Virus record (IMG/VR): IMGVR_UViG_3300014204_000113
Location: 64,001 to 128,000 of that record
Source of the DNA: a virus
Taxonomy: Duplodnaviria > Caudoviricetes
Strand: one strand, 5' to 3'
DNA: 64,000 nucleotides
The translations under genes were made by a program, and so were the position numbers. Position 1 is the first letter of the stretch; each line of letters opens with the position of its first letter. Below are positions 5,310 to 63,141 of this stretch, one piece after another. Below the pieces are notes generated by a model, which had not been told where the DNA came from, searched no databases, and saw only the letters and a list, made by a program, of their open reading frames with translations.

Positions 5310-5716
5310 AAAGGGAGATAATTATGGATTGTTTTAACAGAGTAAGGTTTGGTGCGTGTCCTTATAGATTATCAAATCCAAATTACAGTTCTGTTAATGC
5401 TGCTGCTTGTTTAAAAACAGATTGTTTGGCTTTCGCGATAAAACATGAAATTAATGAACGATCAGGAAGAACCAGAGAAAGACCTTTTTGCCAAGCCCTT
5501 AAAATTTATTTGGATTAAAAAAGGAGAAACAAAATGGGTCCAAAAACTTGTTATGAATGCAACAACAAAGATTTGTGCGCTATCCTTTTTGTTTTTCAAA
5601 AGGCGATGGAAGAAAGTCCTACGCTTCCTGTAGTGGACAGTGATGATTTTGAACATAGGCTATATGAACTGCTTGGTCAAGACTGTTTGTATTATAATTA
5701 AAGGGAGACAAATAAA

Positions 5717-5992
5717 ATGCCTACAATTAAAATTCCAGCAGAATTGGCAAGAGATATCATTTATGATGACACGGACGAAGGAGAATTGGTTGAAGAAGAA
5801 ATTTTTGATAGTGGCAGATGGTCTATCACTTATAAAGCTATAATTAAATATCAGGATAAATTTTACAAAACATTTTATAGAGTAGGCGCTACTGAAGCAC
5901 AAGAAGAAAGACCGTGGGAATATGATGATGAAGCAGAGTTGGTTGAGGTTAAGCAAGTAGAGAAAATGGTTAAAGTTTGGGAAAAAGTTTAA
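5717..5992 (+). CDS. phage hypothetical protein
   Basis: RW...GATEAQE pattern common in phages; GGGAG RBS. Confidence 0.6.
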   Translation: MPTIKIPAELARDIIYDDTDEGELVEEEIFDSGRWSITYKAIIKYQDKFYKTFYRVGATEAQEERPWEYDDEAELVEVKQVEKMVKVWEKV

Positions 5993-14355: not shown

Positions 14356-14431
14356 GCGGGAATAGCTCAATTGGTAGAGCGCAGACCTTCCCGGTCTGAG
14401 GTTGAGTGTTCAAACCACTCTCCCTGCTCCA
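14356..14431 (+). tRNA. tRNA-Gly(TCC), atypical
   Basis: cloverleaf GCGGGAA...TCCCTGC-T-CCA; anticodon stem CAGAC/GTCTG, loop CT-TCC-CG; T-arm GAGTG-TTCAAAC-CACTC. Confidence 0.8.
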
Positions 14432-17373: not shown

Positions 17374-17402
17374 TTGACAAATTTTGGGAAAAATTCTACA
17401 AT
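17374..17402 (+). promoter_or_regulatory. sigma70-type promoter upstream of recA
   Basis: TTGACA-17-TACAAT. Confidence 0.7.
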
Positions 17403-17482: not shown

Positions 17483-18586
17483 ATGGAGTTTATAATGCCA
17501 CCAAGAAAGAAAACAGATGATGTTGTAAATCAAATCAAAGAAGTTGCAAATAGTCCTGTGAGAAAAGATGATGAACGAGTTGAGTTTTTGAACAGTGGTT
17601 CAACTTTATTAAATTTAGCTGCTTCACAAAAAGGTAAAGATGGTGGATGGGCGCGAGGGAGAGTAATTAATTTGGTTGGTGATTCTAGTTCTGGGAAAAG
17701 CGCCCTTGCATTAGAAGTTTGTGCTCAAAGTCTTTACAATATTAAAAATATAGAATCTAAAATATATCCAAAACCTCAAAAGGTTTCAATAGTTTACAAC
17801 AATGTTGAAGGCGTAATGGATTTTCCAATTTCACAAATGTTCGGTGAGAAATTTAATAATGAAATCGAATGGATACAAACACCAACTTGTGAAGGTTTTG
17901 GTAAAGATTATCAACAAAGAGTCCGTAATTTAAAATCTGGAGAATTTCTTTTATATATTTTAGATTCAATTGATGCTTTAACAACAGAAGCTTCTTCAGA
18001 AAGAATGGATCAACTTTTAACCGATAAAAAAGTTGGTGGTTCTTATGGTTTAGAAAAACCAAAATTTTTTTCAAGTGAATTTTTCAATCATTTATGTGGA
18101 ATAATGAAAGGAAAAGATTCAACACTAGTTTGTATCAGTCAAGTTAGACAAAATATTGGCATAATGTTTGGGGAAAAACTTACAAGAACTGGTGGGAAAG
18201 CTCTAGATTTTTATGCACATCAAGTTTGTTGGTTGGCAACCATTGAAAAAATGAAGAAAACTTTTCGTAATCAAGATAGAATTTATGGAGTAAAAATAAG
18301 AGCACGTTTTAAAAAAAATAAAACAGCAATACCTTATAGAGAATGTGATTTTAGTATTATTTTCAATTTTGGAATTGATGATGTCAATTCAATGTTAGAT
18401 TTTTGTTTTGGTCCAAAAAGCAAGGAAATGACTTGGAATGACCAAGAAATGAAACGAGGAGATTTAGTAGAATTAATTGACAACTCAAAGGAGGATTATT
18501 TACTGCTACAAGAACTGACTGAAAAAATTTGGCATGAAATAGAGGAGGGAATAAAACCACGAAGAAAAAACAGGTTTATTGATTGA
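17483..18586 (+). CDS. recA: RecA/UvsX-like recombinase
   Basis: GDSSSGKS Walker A, LDSIDAL, ISQVR, GGKALDFYA, KNK. Confidence 0.9.
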   Translation: MEFIMPPRKKTDDVVNQIKEVANSPVRKDDERVEFLNSGSTLLNLAASQKGKDGGWARGRVINLVGDSSSGKSALALEVCAQSLYNIKNIESKIYPKPQKVSIVYNNVEGVMDFPISQMFGEKFNNEIEWIQTPTCEGFGKDYQQRVRNLKSGEFLLYILDSIDALTTEASSERMDQLLTDKKVGGSYGLEKPKFFSSEFFNHLCGIMKGKDSTLVCISQVRQNIGIMFGEKLTRTGGKALDFYAHQVCWLATIEKMKKTFRNQDRIYGVKIRARFKKNKTAIPYRECDFSIIFNFGIDDVNSMLDFCFGPKSKEMTWNDQEMKRGDLVELIDNSKEDYLLLQELTEKIWHEIEEGIKPRRKNRFID

Positions 18587-18706
18587 GGTTAGGTTTGGTT
18601 AGGTGGGGTCCGGTAAGGTGAGGTAAGGTGAGGTGTGATGAGGTTGGGTAAGGTGGGGTGAGGTAAGGTATGGTAAGGTACGGTATGGTAGGCTAGGGTG
18701 AGGTAT
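18587..18706 (+). ncRNA. GGT-NN pentamer array A2 (24 units), putative guide RNA
   Basis: starts at the base after the recA stop; NN = TA TT TA GG CC AA GA AA GA GT GA TG AA GG GA AA AT AA AC AT AG AG GA AT. Confidence 0.88.
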
Positions 18707-18711
18707 GGATT

Positions 18712-19026
18712 TTGCGACTTAAATTTGAAAGTTGTTTTGAAACTCAATTTCGGGAAGAACTTGAAAGTCGTGGATTCATAAAGAATAAAGATTTCATACA
18801 AGAATTTCCAGTTCGGTATCCAACCCGAATAATCGACTTTGTATTTTATGACAAAAAGGTTGGTGTTGAATTGGATGGTCCACATCACATTGGTAAGAAA
18901 AAGTATGTTGACAAGTGGAAAGATGAAAAAGCAATAAAACAAGGATGGGTTATTGTAAGATTTGATTTGGAGCAAATGAAAGATATCAAGAATTGTGTTG
19001 ATATGGCTTTAAGTTTGATTAAATGA
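18712..19026 (+). CDS. DUF559/Vsr-like PD-(D/E)XK endonuclease
   Basis: E...QEFPV...IIDF...VELDGPHH...D..KD.....GW.IVRF; TTG start with GAGGT RBS inside the array. Confidence 0.8.
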   Translation: MRLKFESCFETQFREELESRGFIKNKDFIQEFPVRYPTRIIDFVFYDKKVGVELDGPHHIGKKKYVDKWKDEKAIKQGWVIVRFDLEQMKDIKNCVDMALSLIK

Positions 19027-19033
19027 ATTTTAT

Positions 19034-19093
19034 GGTGCGGTTGGGTCTGGTGTGGTACGGTTTGGTCAGGTATGGTCAGGTAGGGTAAGGTAT
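19034..19093 (+). ncRNA. GGT-NN pentamer array A3 (12 units)
   Basis: NN = GC TG CT GT AC TT CA AT CA AG AA AT; directly upstream of the RAMP-like gene. Confidence 0.85.
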
Positions 19094-19122
19094 GGGTTTT
19101 TCTATACTCAAATTAAAACAAG

Positions 19123-19653
19123 ATGGAGAAACAAATCATGGAGTTGACAAGAATTAAAGTAACAGTTCATGGAACAAAACCTCTTTTGGTGCATCGTTTT
19201 GCGGAAGAAGAAAGCGGCAAATCCAGGAAGAAAGCAACTGAGGATTCAAAAACGCAGGCAGAAAAGGCTCTTTACACAAATGCAGATGGACCTTATGCAC
19301 CATCTTCTTGGTTTGAAGGAGCTATGGTTAAAGCCGGTGTAAATTTCTCGTTGCGCGGCAAGAAAACTTACAAAGATTTGGTTAAAAGTGCGGTTGTGGT
19401 GACACCAGAAGAAATTCCTCTACGCAACGAATGGGAAGTAGATTCTCGTCCTGTTGTGATTAGCGGCAGGATTATGCGCCATCGTCCTAAATTTAAAGAA
19501 TGGTCGGCAGAATTCACAGTTGAAATTACAGACCCGCAATTACCAGCAAATGTCTTGCAAGACATTTTGAAAGATGCAGGACAATATTGTGGCGTGGGTG
19601 ACTACAGACCCAAGTTTGGTACTTTTGAAATTGTTGAATTTAAAGAAATTTAA
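19123..19653 (+). CDS. stand-alone RAMP/Cas7-like protein, paralog 1 (GGT arrays)
   Basis: VHGTKPLL, PSS, DSRPVV...RIMRHRPKF..W, C-terminal G-loop AG..CGVGDYRPKFGTF. Confidence 0.8.
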   Translation: MEKQIMELTRIKVTVHGTKPLLVHRFAEEESGKSRKKATEDSKTQAEKALYTNADGPYAPSSWFEGAMVKAGVNFSLRGKKTYKDLVKSAVVVTPEEIPLRNEWEVDSRPVVISGRIMRHRPKFKEWSAEFTVEITDPQLPANVLQDILKDAGQYCGVGDYRPKFGTFEIVEFKEI

Positions 19654-19690
19654 TTGATAATTTATGTAGCAATAAAATTTAATTATTCTA

Positions 19691-19987
19691 TTGCTACATA
19701 AAAACAAGGTGGGCAGATTAATGTACAAAATATACAAATACCCGTTTGAAATCAAAGATGAATTCATCATTGAGATGCCTTATGATTCAAAGATTCTCAA
19801 CGCCTTTTGCCAAAATGATATTCCTTGTATGTGGGCATTAGTTAATCCACAAAGAAAATTACAAAAACGTAAATTCACCATTATAGGTACAGGGCATCCA
19901 ATTGAAGAAACTTACAATTTAGAACATATTTCAACTTTTTCACAATCTGATGGCAAATTCATCTGGCACCTTTTTGAGATAGTCTAA
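19691..19987 (+). CDS. phage hypothetical protein
   Basis: IYKYP...WALVNP...GTGH...WHLFE pattern; likely start ATG 19721. Confidence 0.6.
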   Translation: MLHKNKVGRLMYKIYKYPFEIKDEFIIEMPYDSKILNAFCQNDIPCMWALVNPQRKLQKRKFTIIGTGHPIEETYNLEHISTFSQSDGKFIWHLFEIV

Positions 19988-22503: not shown

Positions 22504-22758
22504 ATGAAAACCCTATTCCTGATTTTGCTTCTATGTCTGCTTGCAAGTCCCGCATGGCCCAGAGACCACAACAATTATGTAATCAGAGACAAGAATTATA
22601 CTGTCAAAAATTATGTCAAAGATGGAAAAATTTATGATAAGAATTACCGTCTTGAAGGTTACATAAGTCCTAATGGCACTATCAGAGATAGAAATTATAA
22701 AACTGAAGGTTATCTTGACAGGAATAGAAGTGGCGGTCGCAAAGGGCGAAACAAATGA
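22504..22758 (+). CDS. secreted protein with three IxD(K/R)NY...Y repeats
   Basis: signal peptide MKTLFLILLLCLLASPAWP; repeats IRDKNY, IYDKNY, IRDRNY. Confidence 0.7.
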   Translation: MKTLFLILLLCLLASPAWPRDHNNYVIRDKNYTVKNYVKDGKIYDKNYRLEGYISPNGTIRDRNYKTEGYLDRNRSGGRKGRNK

Positions 22759-22983: not shown

Positions 22984-23058
22984 AGCATGGTTAGGCGAGT
23001 CCGGGCGATGCTAGGTAGGGCATGGCCAGGCGGGTCTAGGTGTGGCAGGTTGTGGCGA
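22984..23058 (+). ncRNA. GGC-NN pentamer array B1 (15 units)
   Basis: NN = AT TA GA CG GA TA AG AT CA GG TA GT AG GT GA; triplet mostly GGC/GGT with variants. Confidence 0.85.
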
Positions 23059-23106
23059 GGATTTAAAAAACGAAAAATCTAACACAAATAAAAGGAGGAA
23101 CAACAA

Positions 23107-23661
23107 ATGAACTTGGTACTGTGTAAATACAAAATTACTGGCTTATTTCCACTTTTAACCCACAGTCCTGCTGGAATGAGGCAAGCGGCCAATGCGCCAA
23201 AAGTCAAGAAGATTCCATCGCCAGAAGATGAAGCACAAGCTGGTTTGTATATTGATAATGATGGAAATTATTGCATCCCGTCTATTGCTTTTCGTTCAGC
23301 TTTATTGAATGGATTGAAAGGGAAAAAGATTGGCAAGGTGGGTGCAATTTCAGTGTTTCAAGCTGCGGTTTTTAACGTGGACGAATTGAGTCCATTAGTT
23401 GACCCTGAAACTGGGCGAGCATTAAGGGAATATACGATCGACACTCGTAGAGCTATCGTGCAAAGACAAGGAATTTTAAGAAACCGTCCAAGATTTGAAA
23501 AATGGGGATGTAATGTTTTTCTTCAAATCGACTTGGAAATAACCACACCTGAGCAAGTAGAAGAAGCATTGAATACGGCTGGTCAAATCATTGGCGTGGG
23601 TGATTTCCGTATTGAAAAGAGAGGAATGTTCGGTAAGTTTCAAGCCGAATTGGTTGAATAA
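23107..23661 (+). CDS. stand-alone RAMP/Cas7-like protein, paralog 2 (GGC arrays)
   Basis: ITGLFPLL, IPS, DTRRAIV...ILRNRPRF..W, AG..IGVGDFR....GMFGKF. Confidence 0.8.
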   Translation: MNLVLCKYKITGLFPLLTHSPAGMRQAANAPKVKKIPSPEDEAQAGLYIDNDGNYCIPSIAFRSALLNGLKGKKIGKVGAISVFQAAVFNVDELSPLVDPETGRALREYTIDTRRAIVQRQGILRNRPRFEKWGCNVFLQIDLEITTPEQVEEALNTAGQIIGVGDFRIEKRGMFGKFQAELVE

Positions 23662-23679
23662 AAGATTTTAAAGATTTGT

Positions 23680-23744
23680 GGCAAGGCGAGGCTGGGCTAG
23701 GCGGGGCTAGGCGGGGCTAGGCGGGGCTAGGTATGTCAAGGCGA
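23680..23744 (+). ncRNA. GGC-NN pentamer array B2 (13 units)
   Basis: NN = AA GA TG TA GG TA GG TA GG TA AT AA GA; internal (GGCGGGGCTA)x3. Confidence 0.8.
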
Positions 23745-23789
23745 GGTTTGAAAAAGAAATTAAGAACAAGAAATATAATGATTTTTCGC

Positions 23790-23839
23790 GGCGGGGTGGG
23801 GCGATGCCCGGCCCGGCATGGTAAGGCAAGTTAAGGCGA
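23790..23839 (+). ncRNA. GGC-NN pentamer array B3 (10 units)
   Basis: NN = GG GG GA CC CC AT AA AA AA GA. Confidence 0.8.
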
Positions 23840-23870
23840 GGGTTTTCAAACAAAACAAAGGAGAATAAAT

Positions 23871-24548
23871 ATGCTAATCAAAGCAGCAGAATTGATTGAG
23901 GATTTCAGTTTATATCCACGTTCCCAAGTGGACACAACACATGTAAGAAATATTGCAGAAGCAATGATGGCAGGAGAAAAATTTCCGTCTATCATCATTG
24001 ATGAACAAAATAGGATTATTGATGGCTTCCATCGGAAAAGAGCTACATTGAGGGTTTTTGGAGATGAGGCTGATATTGAAGTAGAAGTTCGACAATATGT
24101 TAACGATAAAGAAAGATTTCTTGATGCTTTGAGATATAATTCAAGACACGGTAAGGGAATAACTGGAGTTGAACAGACAGGAGCTATTTTGAAGGCTCAA
24201 GGTTTCAAGATTGACCCTAAATTTATCGCTTCTGCTTTGGGAATCAGCCAAGAAAGAGTCAAAGAAATCGTGCAATGTAAAGTCGGGAACATTCGCCAAG
24301 GTACGACTGCTCATGGAGACCCAGTTCCTCTAAAACGCTCTATGCAGCATTTTGCTGGGAAAGAAATGACTGTTGAGCAAGTTAAGGTGAATGATATGGC
24401 TCCCGGCACGCCACAATCTCTTCTTATCAATCAACTTATCGGATTTATTGAAAGCGGTAGTTTACAACTGGAAAATGAAAAGATTGTTAATGGACTCATC
24501 CATTTGAAGGAACTTTTAAATGGATTGGTTTTGGAAAAAGCGGTTTGA
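23871..24548 (+). CDS. ParB/Srx N-terminal domain protein inside the GGC module
   Basis: YPR, FPSIII, IIDGFHRKRA, N..HG, followed by a possible HTH (IASALGIS). Confidence 0.75.
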   Translation: MLIKAAELIEDFSLYPRSQVDTTHVRNIAEAMMAGEKFPSIIIDEQNRIIDGFHRKRATLRVFGDEADIEVEVRQYVNDKERFLDALRYNSRHGKGITGVEQTGAILKAQGFKIDPKFIASALGISQERVKEIVQCKVGNIRQGTTAHGDPVPLKRSMQHFAGKEMTVEQVKVNDMAPGTPQSLLINQLIGFIESGSLQLENEKIVNGLIHLKELLNGLVLEKAV

Positions 24549-24563
24549 AATAATTAAAGATTT

Positions 24564-24623
24564 GGCTCGGCTTGGTTGGGCGCGGCTAGGCTATGCGCGG
24601 CTTTGCGTGGCAGGGCAAGGCGT
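24564..24623 (+). ncRNA. GGC-NN pentamer array B4 (12 units)
   Basis: NN = TC TT TG GC TA TA GC TT GT AG AA GT. Confidence 0.8.
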
Positions 24624-24677
24624 GGATTTATCATCACAAAGAACAAATTTGAATTAAGTGAAACAGGAGGAGGTAAT

Positions 24678-25565: not shown

Positions 25566-25652
25566 ATCGGTGTGGCGGAATGGTAAAGGCAATAGATTGC
25601 TAATCTATCTGGTGTCAAAGCCGCGAAGGTTCGAATCCTTCACTTACCACCA
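25566..25652 (+). tRNA. degenerate tRNA-Ser(GCT)-like (possible pseudo-tRNA)
   Basis: ATAGA-TTGCTAA-TCTAT anticodon arm, long variable arm, GAAGG-TTCGAAT-CCTTC, CCA; acceptor stem pairs poorly. Confidence 0.6.
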
Positions 25653-25663
25653 TTTTAAAATGT

Positions 25664-25739
25664 GGACTCGTAATTCAGTTGGTAGAAGCCTCAACTCATA
25701 ATTGAGTAGTCTCCCGTTCGAGCCGGGACGAGTCCACCA
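25664..25739 (+). tRNA. tRNA with CAT anticodon (elongator Met or Ile2)
   Basis: GGACTCG/CGAGTCC acceptor, CTCAA-CTCATAA-TTGAG, TCCCG-TTCGAGC-CGGGA, ACCA. Confidence 0.88.
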
Positions 25740-52343: not shown

Positions 52344-52413
52344 GGTCCGGTATGGTTTGGTGAGGTATGGTGAGGTGCGGTAAGGTGAGGTCAGGTTTGG
52401 TGGGGTAAGGTAT
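52344..52413 (+). ncRNA. GGT-NN pentamer array A5 (14 units)
   Basis: NN = CC AT TT GA AT GA GC AA GA CA TT GG AA AT; same leader and tail as A3. Confidence 0.85.
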
Positions 52414-52445: not shown

Positions 52446-52520
52446 GGTATGGTCAGGTATGGTTAGGTAAGGTATGGTACGGTTCGGCGGGGTTTGGTTC
52501 GGTAAGGTAAGGTATGGTAA
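52446..52520 (+). ncRNA. GGT-NN pentamer array A6 (15 units)
   Basis: NN = AT CA AT TA AA AT AC TC GG TT TC AA AA AT AA. Confidence 0.88.
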
Positions 52521-52522
52521 GG

Positions 52523-52549
52523 TAGATGGGAGAGTCTATCTCCCATCTA
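52523..52549 (+). terminator. 11-bp hairpin closing array A6
   Basis: TAGATGGGAGA-GTCTA-TCTCCCATCTA. Confidence 0.7.
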
Positions 52550-52568: not shown

Positions 52569-54179
52569 ATGCGCGTTCTTTTTGTGAATGAAAAATGGGT
52601 CCGCAACGATCCGACTTTACGAGAGGCAAGAGGCACAGTAGAAAGCTACCTAGAAAGCGGTTTTGGCACGGCATCAGAATTTCATTGCGATGAATATTTT
52701 TATAACTACAAGAGGGATTGGAATTTTCCTCTGATAGAAAAGATAATTGAAGAAAGACCAGATGCGATTTTTTTTATGTGGATTAACAGCCAGTACAATC
52801 CTTCATTAGATGTATTTTCTATTATTCATAAAATGGGAATACCCATAGTTTGTTGGTGGGGAGATTTTTCGTTTGAAGGTTCTGTAAGAAACGCTCAAAA
52901 TTTATCTCCATTTATATCCACACATTTGATTGCAGACACTCCAATTGCTTTAACAAATGATGTCCATATAGAAAAATACAAACATATTTGGCCTACACCA
53001 ATTAACCAATTCTTTTTTAAAGGAGAAGAAAAAGACAGAATTATTCCAGTGTCTTTTCCAGGTGGAACTATTGAAGGTGGAAATAAAGGACCAAGAGAAA
53101 AGTACATAAAATATTTAATTGAAAATGGAGTAGGTGTTTTTGTGGGAGGAACAAGAAAAGAAGAAACAACTATGCAATATGCTGATACGCTTAGAAAATC
53201 TCAAATAGTCATAAACTTTTCACCTCTAGGTCAATATGGTTGCCCGTTGAAAGGAAGGTCTTTTGAAGCGATATGGTGTGGCTCTTTATTGATGGAGCCG
53301 TCTGGTTCCTTTCTTGAATACCATTTTACACCATATTCTGATTATATTCCTTATGATAATGAAAATGATTTATTAAATAAGATCAGATATTTTAGCGCAA
53401 ATAAGGAAGAAAGAGAATCAATCGCAAATCGTGGACATGAAAGAGCAATTCAAAAATACAACCCATTTTCTTTTTGGAATAAAATATTTAATGATTATTT
53501 AATTCCATATGATTTACATCTTGATATGCAGAATATACGCGGATTATTGGATTTCTTCATCTCTAAAAAGAAAGAAGTCTTTTGTAATGATTTTGTTTTC
53601 ATTAAAGAAATTTCATATTTAATTGAAAACTTGAATATCAAAGAATTTTGGGAAACTGGAAGTTATTTGGGTCATTCAACTGATTTCATCAAAAGTTTAT
53701 TCCCAAAATTGGACGTGTTCAGTTGCGACATTCACGAAGGCTATCTTGAAACAGCAAAAAATAATTGTCCTTTGGTAGATTACAAACTAATTGATTCTGT
53801 TAATTTTCTAAAAGAAAGAATTGACAATTATTCTGTCCCAACTTTTGTTTTTCTCGATGCACATGGTCATGGTGGTGGTTTGCCATTAGAAAAAGAATTG
53901 CAACTGATAGGGAATTCTGAAAAGAAATATGTACTATGTATTCATGATTGCAGACTTCCGAAAAGACCTATTTTTGGATGGGATAATTATAATGGAGTTG
54001 ATATTTCTGTTGAACTAATAGAAAAGGTTTTGAAGAAAACTGATTGTATTTTTGATATCTTTATACCATCAAATATTTATAATCATGACCCGCTAAGAGG
54101 AAGATGTTATGTTTTCGTAAATTGGTTTGAAAATTATACTATTGATTCTAAACTATTTACAAAATTGGAGGATATTTAA
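52569..54179 (+). CDS. GT-B (CgeB/Glyco_trans_1_2-like) glycosyltransferase fused to a SAM-methyltransferase-like domain
   Basis: KGRSFEAIWCG, HF.P..DY; C-terminal ETGSYLG, FLDAH, IHD. Confidence 0.75.
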   Translation: MRVLFVNEKWVRNDPTLREARGTVESYLESGFGTASEFHCDEYFYNYKRDWNFPLIEKIIEERPDAIFFMWINSQYNPSLDVFSIIHKMGIPIVCWWGDFSFEGSVRNAQNLSPFISTHLIADTPIALTNDVHIEKYKHIWPTPINQFFFKGEEKDRIIPVSFPGGTIEGGNKGPREKYIKYLIENGVGVFVGGTRKEETTMQYADTLRKSQIVINFSPLGQYGCPLKGRSFEAIWCGSLLMEPSGSFLEYHFTPYSDYIPYDNENDLLNKIRYFSANKEERESIANRGHERAIQKYNPFSFWNKIFNDYLIPYDLHLDMQNIRGLLDFFISKKKEVFCNDFVFIKEISYLIENLNIKEFWETGSYLGHSTDFIKSLFPKLDVFSCDIHEGYLETAKNNCPLVDYKLIDSVNFLKERIDNYSVPTFVFLDAHGHGGGLPLEKELQLIGNSEKKYVLCIHDCRLPKRPIFGWDNYNGVDISVELIEKVLKKTDCIFDIFIPSNIYNHDPLRGRCYVFVNWFENYTIDSKLFTKLEDI

Positions 54180-62438: not shown

Positions 62439-62528
62439 TGTGTTGTAATGTTCTGTGTTGTGTGGCGCTGTAGTGTAATGTTAAGTCCTGTAGTGTGGCG
62501 TAGTGTGTTGTTATGTGTTCTATTCTAA
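62439..62528 (+). ncRNA. TGT-NN pentamer array C1 (18 units)
   Basis: NN = GT AA TC GT GT GC AG AA TA CC AG GG AG GT TA GT AT AA; flanked by hairpins AATATCCA/TGGATATT and GGATTC/GAATCC. Confidence 0.82.
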
Positions 62529-62574: not shown

Positions 62575-63141
62575 ATGAAAATTAAAGTTACAATTCAAGG
62601 AACAGTTCCAATTTTATTTAATCGTTTTGCAGAAGAGAATGAAGTTAAAGTTGCTTCTGGAATTAATCCAGTTCAAGGAGGACAAAGAGGAACGCCTAGA
62701 GAACAAGCAGAAAAGAAACTATATCAAGACGTGGATGGGAATTTGTTTCTTCCAAGTCCTATGTTATTTTCTTGTTTAGTAGATGCTGGTAAATTCCATA
62801 AAGTGGGAAGAAATAAAGTTACGACTCAGAAGACTTCTTTAGTTCCTGCCGGTATATCTGTTGAAGAATTAATCATTCCGTTTAATACTAAAGATTGGGA
62901 AATTGATTCTAGAAGCGTTGTGATACCATCTACTGGTGGTAGAATCATGTGTCACAGACCCCGGCTTGATGAGTGGCAATTAACTTTCACTTTGGATGTT
63001 GATACAACAATGTTTGATCCTAAGTTTGTTAGGACTCTTATGGATGATGCAGGCAAGAAATGTGGCTTGGGTGATTATAGACCTAATCGTAAAGGGCCAT
63101 TTGGTAAATTTGTTGTGATTAATTGGGAAGAAGAAAAATAA
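62575..63141 (+). CDS. stand-alone RAMP/Cas7-like protein, paralog 3 (TGT array)
   Basis: IQGTVPIL, LPS, DSRSVVI...RIMCHRPRL..W, AG..CGLGDYRP..KGPFGKF. Confidence 0.8.
   Translation: MKIKVTIQGTVPILFNRFAEENEVKVASGINPVQGGQRGTPREQAEKKLYQDVDGNLFLPSPMLFSCLVDAGKFHKVGRNKVTTQKTSLVPAGISVEELIIPFNTKDWEIDSRSVVIPSTGGRIMCHRPRLDEWQLTFTLDVDTTMFDPKFVRTLMDDAGKKCGLGDYRPNRKGPFGKFVVINWEEEK

Follow-up and report, generated by a model that had tools for sequence, protein, structure and literature searches.

A VIPR-type cassette with a Vsr-like mini-nuclease between its guide arrays, inserted behind recA in a phage-like contig

Layout of the cassette

The stretch of DNA analyzed here, called the window below, is 64,000 nucleotides (nt) long (positions 64,001 to 128,000 of IMG/VR record IMGVR_UViG_3300014204_000113). 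Its source is a single 187,988-bp phage-like contig of 33% G+C, with a phage-like gene content that includes a gp32-like single-stranded DNA-binding protein, a RecA/UvsX-like recombinase, and a dCMP deaminase. The subject of this study is a cassette of about 1.1 kb that abuts the recA gene of the window without a spacer and consists, in order, of a repeat array (A1), a gene for a 104-amino-acid (aa) nuclease, a second repeat array (A2), a gene designated vipr1, and a hairpin. A preliminary description of this DNA had seen in it a module of the form array-nuclease-array-RAMP inserted behind recA, and the layout is as described: A1, a DUF559 nuclease of 104 aa, A2, and a protein of 176 aa that has two paralogues in the window. 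We examined whether this module belongs to a known RNA-guided family, what its guides match, and how it came to lie behind recA.

All features of the locus are on the plus strand. The left flank is the recA/UvsX-like recombinase gene (17483 to 18586; Pfam RecA, E value of 1.2e-26; phrog_97, UvsX-like), and the nearest relatives of its product show 62 to 64% identity. A promoter-like site 5' of recA, TTGACA-17-TACAAT at 17374 to 17402, is recognized by its match to the consensus, at 11 of 12 positions. It is the sole strong promoter candidate for recA and the cassette; no similar site lies directly 5' of the arrays. Array A1 (18587 to 18709) contains 24 full NN-GGT pentamers in one 5-nt register, two of which carry GAT and GCT as their triplets, and closes with a terminal GGA followed by TTTT. 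Units 1 to 19 (18587 to 18681) constitute the guide, and the last five units with the GGAUUUU of the transcript make up a conserved, non-guide 3' end. Other arrays of the genome have these 3' units and the GGRTTT end as well, and both are kept in L002, a locus from a sister phage with the same cassette. The nuclease gene (18712 to 19026) starts with TTG, matches Pfam DUF559, and encodes a catalytic core only; it lies between A1 and A2, 97 nt 5' of vipr1. Array A2 (19034 to 19096) has 12 pentamers and a terminal GGG, with nine guide units and a conserved 3' end (AG AA AT GGGUUUUU). The vipr1 gene (19123 to 19653; phrog_4652, E value of 8e-26) encodes the 176-aa Vipr, or ancestral RAMP, protein of the GGT-type arrays.

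At the right end of the cassette, a 10-bp perfect inverted repeat read from the sequence (ATGTAGCAAT...ATTGCTACAT, 19664 to 19699) could form a hairpin. It is a possible terminator, although the terminator scan did not call it, as its G-C pairs are too few and it lacks a run of T. Beyond it lies a short remnant of a recA 3' end, AGGTGGGCAGATTAA (19707 to 19721), which marks the right insertion junction and overlaps the ATG of the right-flanking DUF7352 gene (19721 to 19987; Pfam DUF7352, E value of 1e-22), a gene found in synteny in two relatives, L091 and L092.

The nuclease gene and A1 are interlocked. A Shine-Dalgarno-like GAGGT at 18700 to 18704, which the preliminary description had placed inside an array, indeed falls within the last A1 units, 7 nt 5' of the TTG. 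The same ribosome-binding-site context and TTG start are found in L002. It had also been proposed that coating of the array by the RAMP protein could autoregulate translation of the nuclease. The position of the ribosome-binding site in the last array units, seen also in L002 and L003, fits that proposal. The arrangement is not general, however, since a gap of 30 to 65 nt separates array and nuclease gene in L014 and L024. Vipr coating might thus control nuclease translation, and the support for it is positional.

The 188-kb genome contains 13 such pentamer arrays, 12 of them on the plus strand, and the opposite strand of the window was searched without finding such an array. Some arrays of the genome are followed by hairpins and share the conserved last units and the GGRTTT end. 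Folding of A1 with its flanks gave a structure no better than those of shuffled sequences (z of 0.41), with no pseudoknot-like structure seen, and an Rfam scan of the cassette detected no hammerhead or other Rfam family. A 17-nt string, TTGATTAAATGAATTTT, stands directly 5' of A2 (19017 to 19033), where it includes the nuclease stop codon, and again directly 5' of the array at 52344 (52327 to 52343); it is possibly a leader or a processing site common to these vrRNAs.

Assignment to the VIPR family

In the VIPR (Viral Interference Programmable Repeat) systems, a small ancestral RAMP protein, Vipr, composed of an RRM core, a G-loop, and a thumb, polymerizes on vrRNAs made of GGY-NN units. Double-stranded DNA is read by the NN dinucleotides, one base being skipped per unit, usually the codon wobble position (bioRxiv 10.64898/2026.04.26.720920). 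Their demonstrated activity is the transcriptional silencing of rival mobile elements, and Vipr has been placed outside Cas5/6/7 (bioRxiv 10.64898/2026.04.26.720920). Structures (bioRxiv 10.64898/2026.04.26.720927) and a role in phage-satellite competition (bioRxiv 10.64898/2026.10.15.759431) have also been reported, the reference member being that of Escherichia phage SUSP1, type II (PDB 36pp). As described in the text of the first preprint, there are seven VIPR types, III to V having predicted nucleases or helicases; types III and V, those of host defense islands, are the only ones there with predicted nucleases, and for the nuclease-bearing types its authors suggest destruction of the target over repression (bioRxiv 10.64898/2026.04.26.720920).

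A profile of 29 Vipr1 relatives matched PDB 36pp, the SUSP1 Vipr protein, over residues 1 to 173 with an E value of 2e-37, and tblastn gave about 30% identity between the vipr1 product and the protein of SUSP1 and SUSP2, which are Felix O1-like phages. The alignment of these proteins has a conserved G-rich C-terminal motif, G.G.GDYRP..FG.F. Both A1 and A2 lie beside vipr1 on the transcribed strand with their pentamers in strict register, and the one-base-skip reading, with the skips at wobble positions, holds for A1. Among 33 related Vipr lineages, 26 have arrays within 1.5 kb of vipr. CRISPR-Cas was considered and ruled out: the only arrays present have a 5-nt period, and scans of seven flanking proteins gave no hit to a cas family. 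Judged by these sequence comparisons, the RAMP and array part of the cassette is a member of the published VIPR family and not a new class of system. Like the SUSP1 system, it has a single small RAMP-like Vipr, same-strand GGY-NN arrays flanking vipr, a phage as carrier, and a one-base-skip code on codon positions 1 and 2 with targets in rival mobile elements and no self match of 80% or more. It differs in that Vipr1, at only about 30% identity, falls into a separate clade, and in that the cassette has a Vsr-like nuclease between its vrRNAs in place of a vap1-like DNA-binding gene. Its vrRNA 3' end appears to consist of a few conserved units and a U run, whereas the SUSP1 clade has a pseudoknot tail, and A1, with 24 units of which 19 are guide, is longer than the 9 to 16 repeats of published VIPR arrays.

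The two paralogues of vipr1 in the window are located at 23107 to 23661 and at 62575 to 63141, giving three Viprs in the genome. Arrays with GGT, GGC, and TGT triplets are each nearest to a different paralogue, which points to three orthogonal Vipr/vrRNA sets within the same genome. The GGC-NN arrays, at 22989, 23680, 23790, and 24564 (region 22989 to 24626), have conserved GGCGA-GGRTTT ends and surround a ParB-like gene (23871 to 24548). The TGT-NN array (62439 to 62516) is near the paralogue at 62575; noncanonical triplets such as TGH and WGT are already in print.

A Vsr-like nuclease reduced to its catalytic core

The 104-aa protein scored 33.4 bits against Pfam DUF559 (PF04480), above the cutoff of 20.6. 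Its profile matched two solved structures, PDB 3hrl, a DUF559 protein (E value of 1.1e-7), and PDB 3r3p, the catalytic domain of I-Bth0305I (5.1e-7). An AlphaFold2 model (predicted local distance difference test score of 72.6) had 3r3p as its best Foldseek match, with a template modeling score of 0.72 to 0.75; 3hrl was also among the best matches, and 1vsr was listed as well. Residues D42, E53, D55, G56, and H58 are invariant in six nuclease sequences down to 27% identity and are predicted by alignment to form the Vsr active site. Between the window and L002, the ratio of nonsynonymous to synonymous substitution rates (dN/dS) of the nuclease gene is 0.084, which indicates strong purifying selection. 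Neither the search of cultured phages for relatives of the nuclease nor the single-protein IMG/VR scans with the nuclease, Vipr1, and RecA found any, close relatives in the latter case.

I-Bth0305I is a 266-aa Vsr-like homing endonuclease encoded in a group I intron of a phage recA gene, and it finds its site by means of N-terminal NUMOD/helix-turn-helix (HTH) DNA-binding modules (PMC3239194). The alignment of the nuclease studied here with I-Bth0305I is confined to the C-terminal catalytic domain of the latter (residues 167 to 266), and the N-terminal NUMOD/HTH region is absent. A bare catalytic core without a DNA-binding domain has no evident means of choosing a site alone, and this fits a partner that supplies the targeting.

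Linkage of the nuclease to Vipr and arrays

The association was examined from both sides. On the Vipr side, an iterated six-frame search of open reading frames was made across 90 loci with Vipr relatives, about 770 kb in all, representing 34 lineages at 70% identity. It yielded eight homologues of the nuclease, every one within 350 nt of a vipr gene and in at least 5 of the 34 lineages, making the nuclease the most widely shared neighbor gene among the Vipr loci. The order array-nuclease-array-vipr was seen in the window, L002, L003, and L004 (the last of which is cut off at its upstream edge), and the order vipr-array-nuclease-array was seen in L014 and L024. Arrays bracket the nuclease on both sides in L002, L003, L014, and L024. 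Locus L009 has a nuclease gene that overlaps the start of vipr, with GTT-NN arrays following. In that locus (5550 to 5935), the Vipr relative is 46% identical, the overlapping upstream nuclease is MTES_1575/DUF559-like, and the units are GTT-NN and not GGY-NN with the AAGGTAGGGATTT-type end kept. Another locus, L099 (1 to 2806), contains a nuclease gene, an overlapping vipr gene, four arrays, and then an AAA_15/AAA_23 ATPase gene; from its gene content, that setting looks more like a host defense island than a phage.

On the nuclease side, a profile search blind to gene context was run against 1.84 billion representatives and returned 35,614 at an E value of 1e-3 or below. The four nearest small relatives examined (P0207, P0209, P0210, and P0211) all lie beside GGY-NN arrays; in one of them a vipr gene overlaps the nuclease 3' end. 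A fifth relative, P0213 (127 aa), has an annotated N terminus, VRCGLVRFGRVRFGAVRYGPVR, that is a translated GGY-NN array, which indicates that the gene caller ran the nuclease reading frame into an upstream vrRNA.

Co-conservation of the nuclease with the RAMP genes, on which the preliminary description had staked its proposal beforehand, was thus found, the linkage recurring in other lineages. A tree of Vipr proteins groups all the nuclease-bearing members in a single clade with good support, apart from that of SUSP1. Because of the linkage to vipr and arrays, the invariant catalytic residues, and the low dN/dS, we regard the nuclease, on comparative grounds, as a functional and dedicated, though optional, accessory of one Vipr clade.

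The nuclease might instead be a selfish passenger, such as a degenerate free-standing homing endonuclease that lands in noncoding arrays, or an RNase that trims vrRNAs. DUF559/Vsr-like genes are common mobile passengers, as the size of the family recovered by the profile search illustrates, and the closest solved relative is itself a homing endonuclease, one encoded in an intron of a phage recA gene. The gene is moreover found within arrays in every case, which would suit either an enzyme that processes them or an element that seeks them out. The protein lacks, however, a DNA-binding domain with which to find a site of its own, and it is under strong purifying selection. Its nearest relatives are linked to arrays in contexts both independent and distant, where vipr may stand on either side, and most VIPR loci make vrRNAs without any nuclease. 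We know of no Vsr-like enzyme that cuts RNA, which counts against the RNase version. We therefore consider both forms of this explanation improbable.

Guide A1 and its target in related phages

Read with one base skipped per unit, units 1 to 19 of A1 match the recA genes of four related phages (L093 to L096) at 37 of 38 nt, with 18 of the 19 units perfect and in codon frame. The corresponding site of the resident allele, recA codons 307 to 325 (18401 to 18457), matches at only 25 of 38 nt, with 9 of 19 units perfect. The preliminary description had called for comparing the decoded target with the resident allele, and this comparison bears out its expectation of a matched nonself recA and a mismatched self copy. 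Over the first 18 units, the match of A1 to other recA genes was 86% for L002, 89% for L092, and 81% for L091. An exact, gapped scan of IMG/VR with the first 12 units (24 bases) found only two contigs, both with recA of the L093 type. The last five units do not match the recA target. Within its own genome, A1 had no full-length match above chance, and no self match reached 80%.

In L093 to L096, the target is about 185 nt (60 codons) before the recA stop codon, which is the same distance from the point where the cassette is inserted. In L093, it occupies positions 5919 to 5975. These four phages lack the cassette and have no arrays within 5 kb of the target recA. Targeting appears to go in both directions, as the first 13 units of array b of L002 match the recA gene of the window at 17615 in 24 of 26 nt. 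Taken together, the A1 and L002 matches indicate that sister phages carry guides against each other's recA alleles. Here the target, an essential gene in sister phages, is the neighbor of the cassette, whereas published VIPR targets are a satellite or prophage regulator.

We considered whether the self target site had been exceptionally recoded and rejected the idea, since it departs from the consensus of the family no more than other parts of RecA do. The most departures from columns conserved in 44 relatives (8 of 19) occur at RecA residues ~278 to 303 (window ~18314 to 18391), a stretch that could be a site attacked by the guides of other phages.

Array A2 had no match of 16/18 or better in the genome or in any fetched locus. 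Eleven metagenome matches to its nine-unit pattern were discarded as chance-like, being in short open frames of which none was homologous to this genome. For at least four other arrays (22989, 48664, 52446, and, in genome coordinates, 167543), the best partial match in the whole genome is no more than 700 nt away. For the solo array at 48664 to 48766, the best gapped match is 25/34 at 48598; for the solo array at 52446 to 52523, it is 19/24 at 52749 on the minus strand; and for the array at 22989 to 23061, it is 15/22 at 22633. The fourth, a solo minus-strand array outside the window (genome 167543 to 167630), matches at 23/28 at window-scale position 103475. This pattern suggests, as a general rule, that guides lie next to the genome's own copy of their target gene. 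The guides of three nuclease-bearing loci, L014, L024, and L099, showed no above-chance match to their own flanks.

Predicted action of the cassette

These observations lead us to favor, with moderate confidence, a model in which Vipr1 and A1 of this uncultured phage guide the nuclease to act on the recA gene of rival phages. The recA gene and the whole cassette would probably be cotranscribed from the promoter-like site at 17374 to 17402. Vipr1 would polymerize on the GGU units of both vrRNAs and present the NN dinucleotides, which would read double-stranded DNA two bases on and one off. Guide A1 would thereby be aimed at codon positions 1 and 2 in a segment close to the 3' end of the recA genes of related phages, whereas the resident allele would presumably be too mismatched for recognition. 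The Vipr-vrRNA filament would open the rival recA DNA, and the nuclease would most likely act on the opened DNA, turning the marking of a rival genome into its nicking or cutting. The family memberships, the gene linkage, the guide-target match, the self mismatch, the empty sites, and the mosaic flanks are observed; we infer that a ribonucleoprotein forms in this phage, that it recruits the nuclease, and that cleavage follows.

Several points weigh against this model. All VIPR activity shown so far is silencing without a nuclease. The nuclease is patchy within its own Vipr clade, requiring at least three gains or losses, which means that VIPR works without it. No target was found for A2, with zero IMG/VR matches to either a 10-unit pattern or the nine-unit guide. 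Finally, the preprints, as far as their text describes the types, give the nuclease-bearing ones as host defense-island systems, which is a misfit with a phage setting; either that census missed the present group or the role of the nuclease differs here.

The main rival explanation is that the cassette only silences. Vipr1-A1 would then block transcription or replication at a rival recA, the guide being kept by the immune allele to avoid self-targeting after recombination, and the nuclease would serve some other end, for instance the degradation of stalled or displaced strands, or have no role in targeting. Silencing is the sole VIPR activity demonstrated and needs no nuclease, and most Vipr relatives of the same clade do without one. 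A linkage of guide and antidote would explain their adjacency with no need for cutting, and the solo arrays beside partial self matches have no nuclease gene nearby. This explanation nevertheless leaves unaccounted for a catalytically intact mini-nuclease subfamily that lacks a DNA-binding domain and is found almost only beside vrRNA arrays. In addition, a target 60 codons before the stop codon is a weak position from which to silence recA. We judge silencing alone to be rather unlikely, and a guided nuclease remains the explanation that we prefer.

Empty sites, junctions, and mosaic flanks

In two phages, L092 and the 189-kb relative L091, the gene directly after recA is that for DUF7352, with an 81-aa open reading frame and the dCMP deaminase gene behind it. 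This is the gene order of the window minus the cassette, and empty sites therefore exist, in agreement with the proposed insertion behind recA and with the relatives lacking the module that the preliminary description had suggested looking for. The idea that DUF7352 might be a vap gene was discarded, since outside the closest relative it shows no linkage to vipr and is simply the next gene after recA in the empty-site phages. At the right junction of the window, the AGGTGGGCAGATTAA region matches the recA end and DUF7352 start of L091 at 16 of 17 bases, which identifies it as a remnant of a recA terminus and marks the right end of the cassette.

The comparison with L002 points to a history of exchange. 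Protein identity between the window and L002 is 97% for Vipr, 93% for DUF7352, and 89% for the nuclease, as against 62% for the adjoining part of RecA and 48% for the last 67 RecA residues. At the nucleotide level, identity jumps at about 18700 from 55 to 75% to 83 to 98%. The right junctions are of two backbone types, that of the window being L091-like and that of L002 being L092-like. By these alignments, the same cassette evidently occupies the same site in backbones with different flanks, which is the pattern that repeated recombination at the site would give. A RecA-alignment scan of Joint Genome Institute metagenome contigs gave no matches.

These data bear on an extension of the guided-nuclease model, with which it is not mutually exclusive. 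The preliminary description had taken the nuclease for a recruited effector that cuts the competitor allele, with repair from this genome spreading the linked guides. That interpretation is partly supported, by the linkage, the empty sites, the decoded target, and flanks that are mosaic, as would be expected of a cassette moved by recombination. In RNA-guided homing of this sort, a break in the recA of a rival, about 185 nt from the insertion point, would be repaired from this genome, copying the immune recA 3' end together with the cassette. The cassette would spread in the manner of a free-standing homing endonuclease gene but with its specificity borne by RNA. In its fullest form, sister phages would re-arm the cassette with guides against each other's recA alleles, and every array in this genome would attack foreign alleles of the gene next to it. 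We hold both the homing step and the whole scheme as tentative, with each rather doubtful at present.

In favor of homing, the empty-site relatives share both flanks, and the guide target is in the flanking gene, near the insertion point, in phages without the cassette. The recA-tail remnant at the right junction, the contrast between a well-conserved cassette and a diverged adjoining RecA with the identity jump between them, the two types of right junction, and the mutual targeting of recA by sister phages all fit, as do the at least four other arrays whose best partial match is right beside them. A target at the 3' end, poorly placed for silencing, is well in keeping with such a mechanism. 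On the other hand, ordinary recombination between coinfecting phages can also yield mosaic flanks. Furthermore, L093 to L096 have different genes 3' of recA, and the homology needed on the right flank is lacking there, while the cassettes of L014, L024, and L099 do not match their own flanks above chance.

Two further kinds of feature were recorded in the window. Rfam identified three tRNA genes (14356 to 14428, 25569 to 25649, and 25664 to 25736). It also identified a HEARO RNA, an HNH endonuclease-associated guide RNA of the IscB type, at 44601 to 44822 on the plus strand (136 bits), which indicates that the same phage also carries an OMEGA-type RNA-guided element.

Relation to known systems and significance

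Free-standing homing endonuclease genes of T4-like phages, such as seg and mob, are inserted between conserved genes, have empty-site relatives, and target a neighboring gene in genomes without the insert; resident alleles resist them, and the flanking markers are mosaic. By sequence, the present cassette resembles them in its intergenic insertion, empty sites, target in the neighboring gene of cassette-free genomes, mismatched resident allele, and mosaic flanks. It would differ from them in that specificity would lie in a linked RNA guide and Vipr, not in the nuclease protein.

The nuclease also shares its catalytic core and its occurrence in phages with I-Bth0305I and the 'EDxHD' homing endonucleases (PMC3239194; PDB 3r3p), and recA is targeted in both cases, here through a predicted guide match. 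I-Bth0305I, however, is a 266-aa, intron-borne protein with NUMOD/HTH modules, and the present enzyme is a bare 104-aa core that stands free between guide arrays, so its choice of target must come from elsewhere.

Among VIPR systems, types III and V, as the preprint text describes them, likewise have a predicted DNA nuclease beside vipr and the vrRNAs. The only nuclease domain named for them in that text is HNH, while the domain here is Vsr-like. By the same description, they are enriched in host defense islands and aimed at viruses; the present system resides in a phage and is directed against sister phages. The running text of the three VIPR papers makes no mention of DUF559, Vsr, or homing. 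The VIPR class and its nuclease-bearing types are thus already published, and what appears to be new, as judged from the sequences, is a Vsr-like mini-nuclease subfamily tied to VIPR, together with a case that combines guide, target, empty sites, and mosaic flanks.

Publication of VIPR dates only from 2026, and the silencing of genes is all that it has so far been shown to do. Should the nuclease be a guided effector, VIPR would have recruited a second class of nuclease, in convergence with the HNH-bearing group. The cassette would then also be a phage-borne variant that cuts, in a system for which cutting has been supposed to occur in host defense islands only. The Vipr and nuclease, at about 20 kDa and 12 kDa, could constitute a very small programmable nuclease pair. 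The near-perfect guide, the immune resident allele, and the mosaic flanks make for a precise prediction that is cheap to test, namely, RNA-guided homing or allele exclusion between sister phages, and homing of this kind would link the biology of homing endonucleases to a proposed ancestor of CRISPR.

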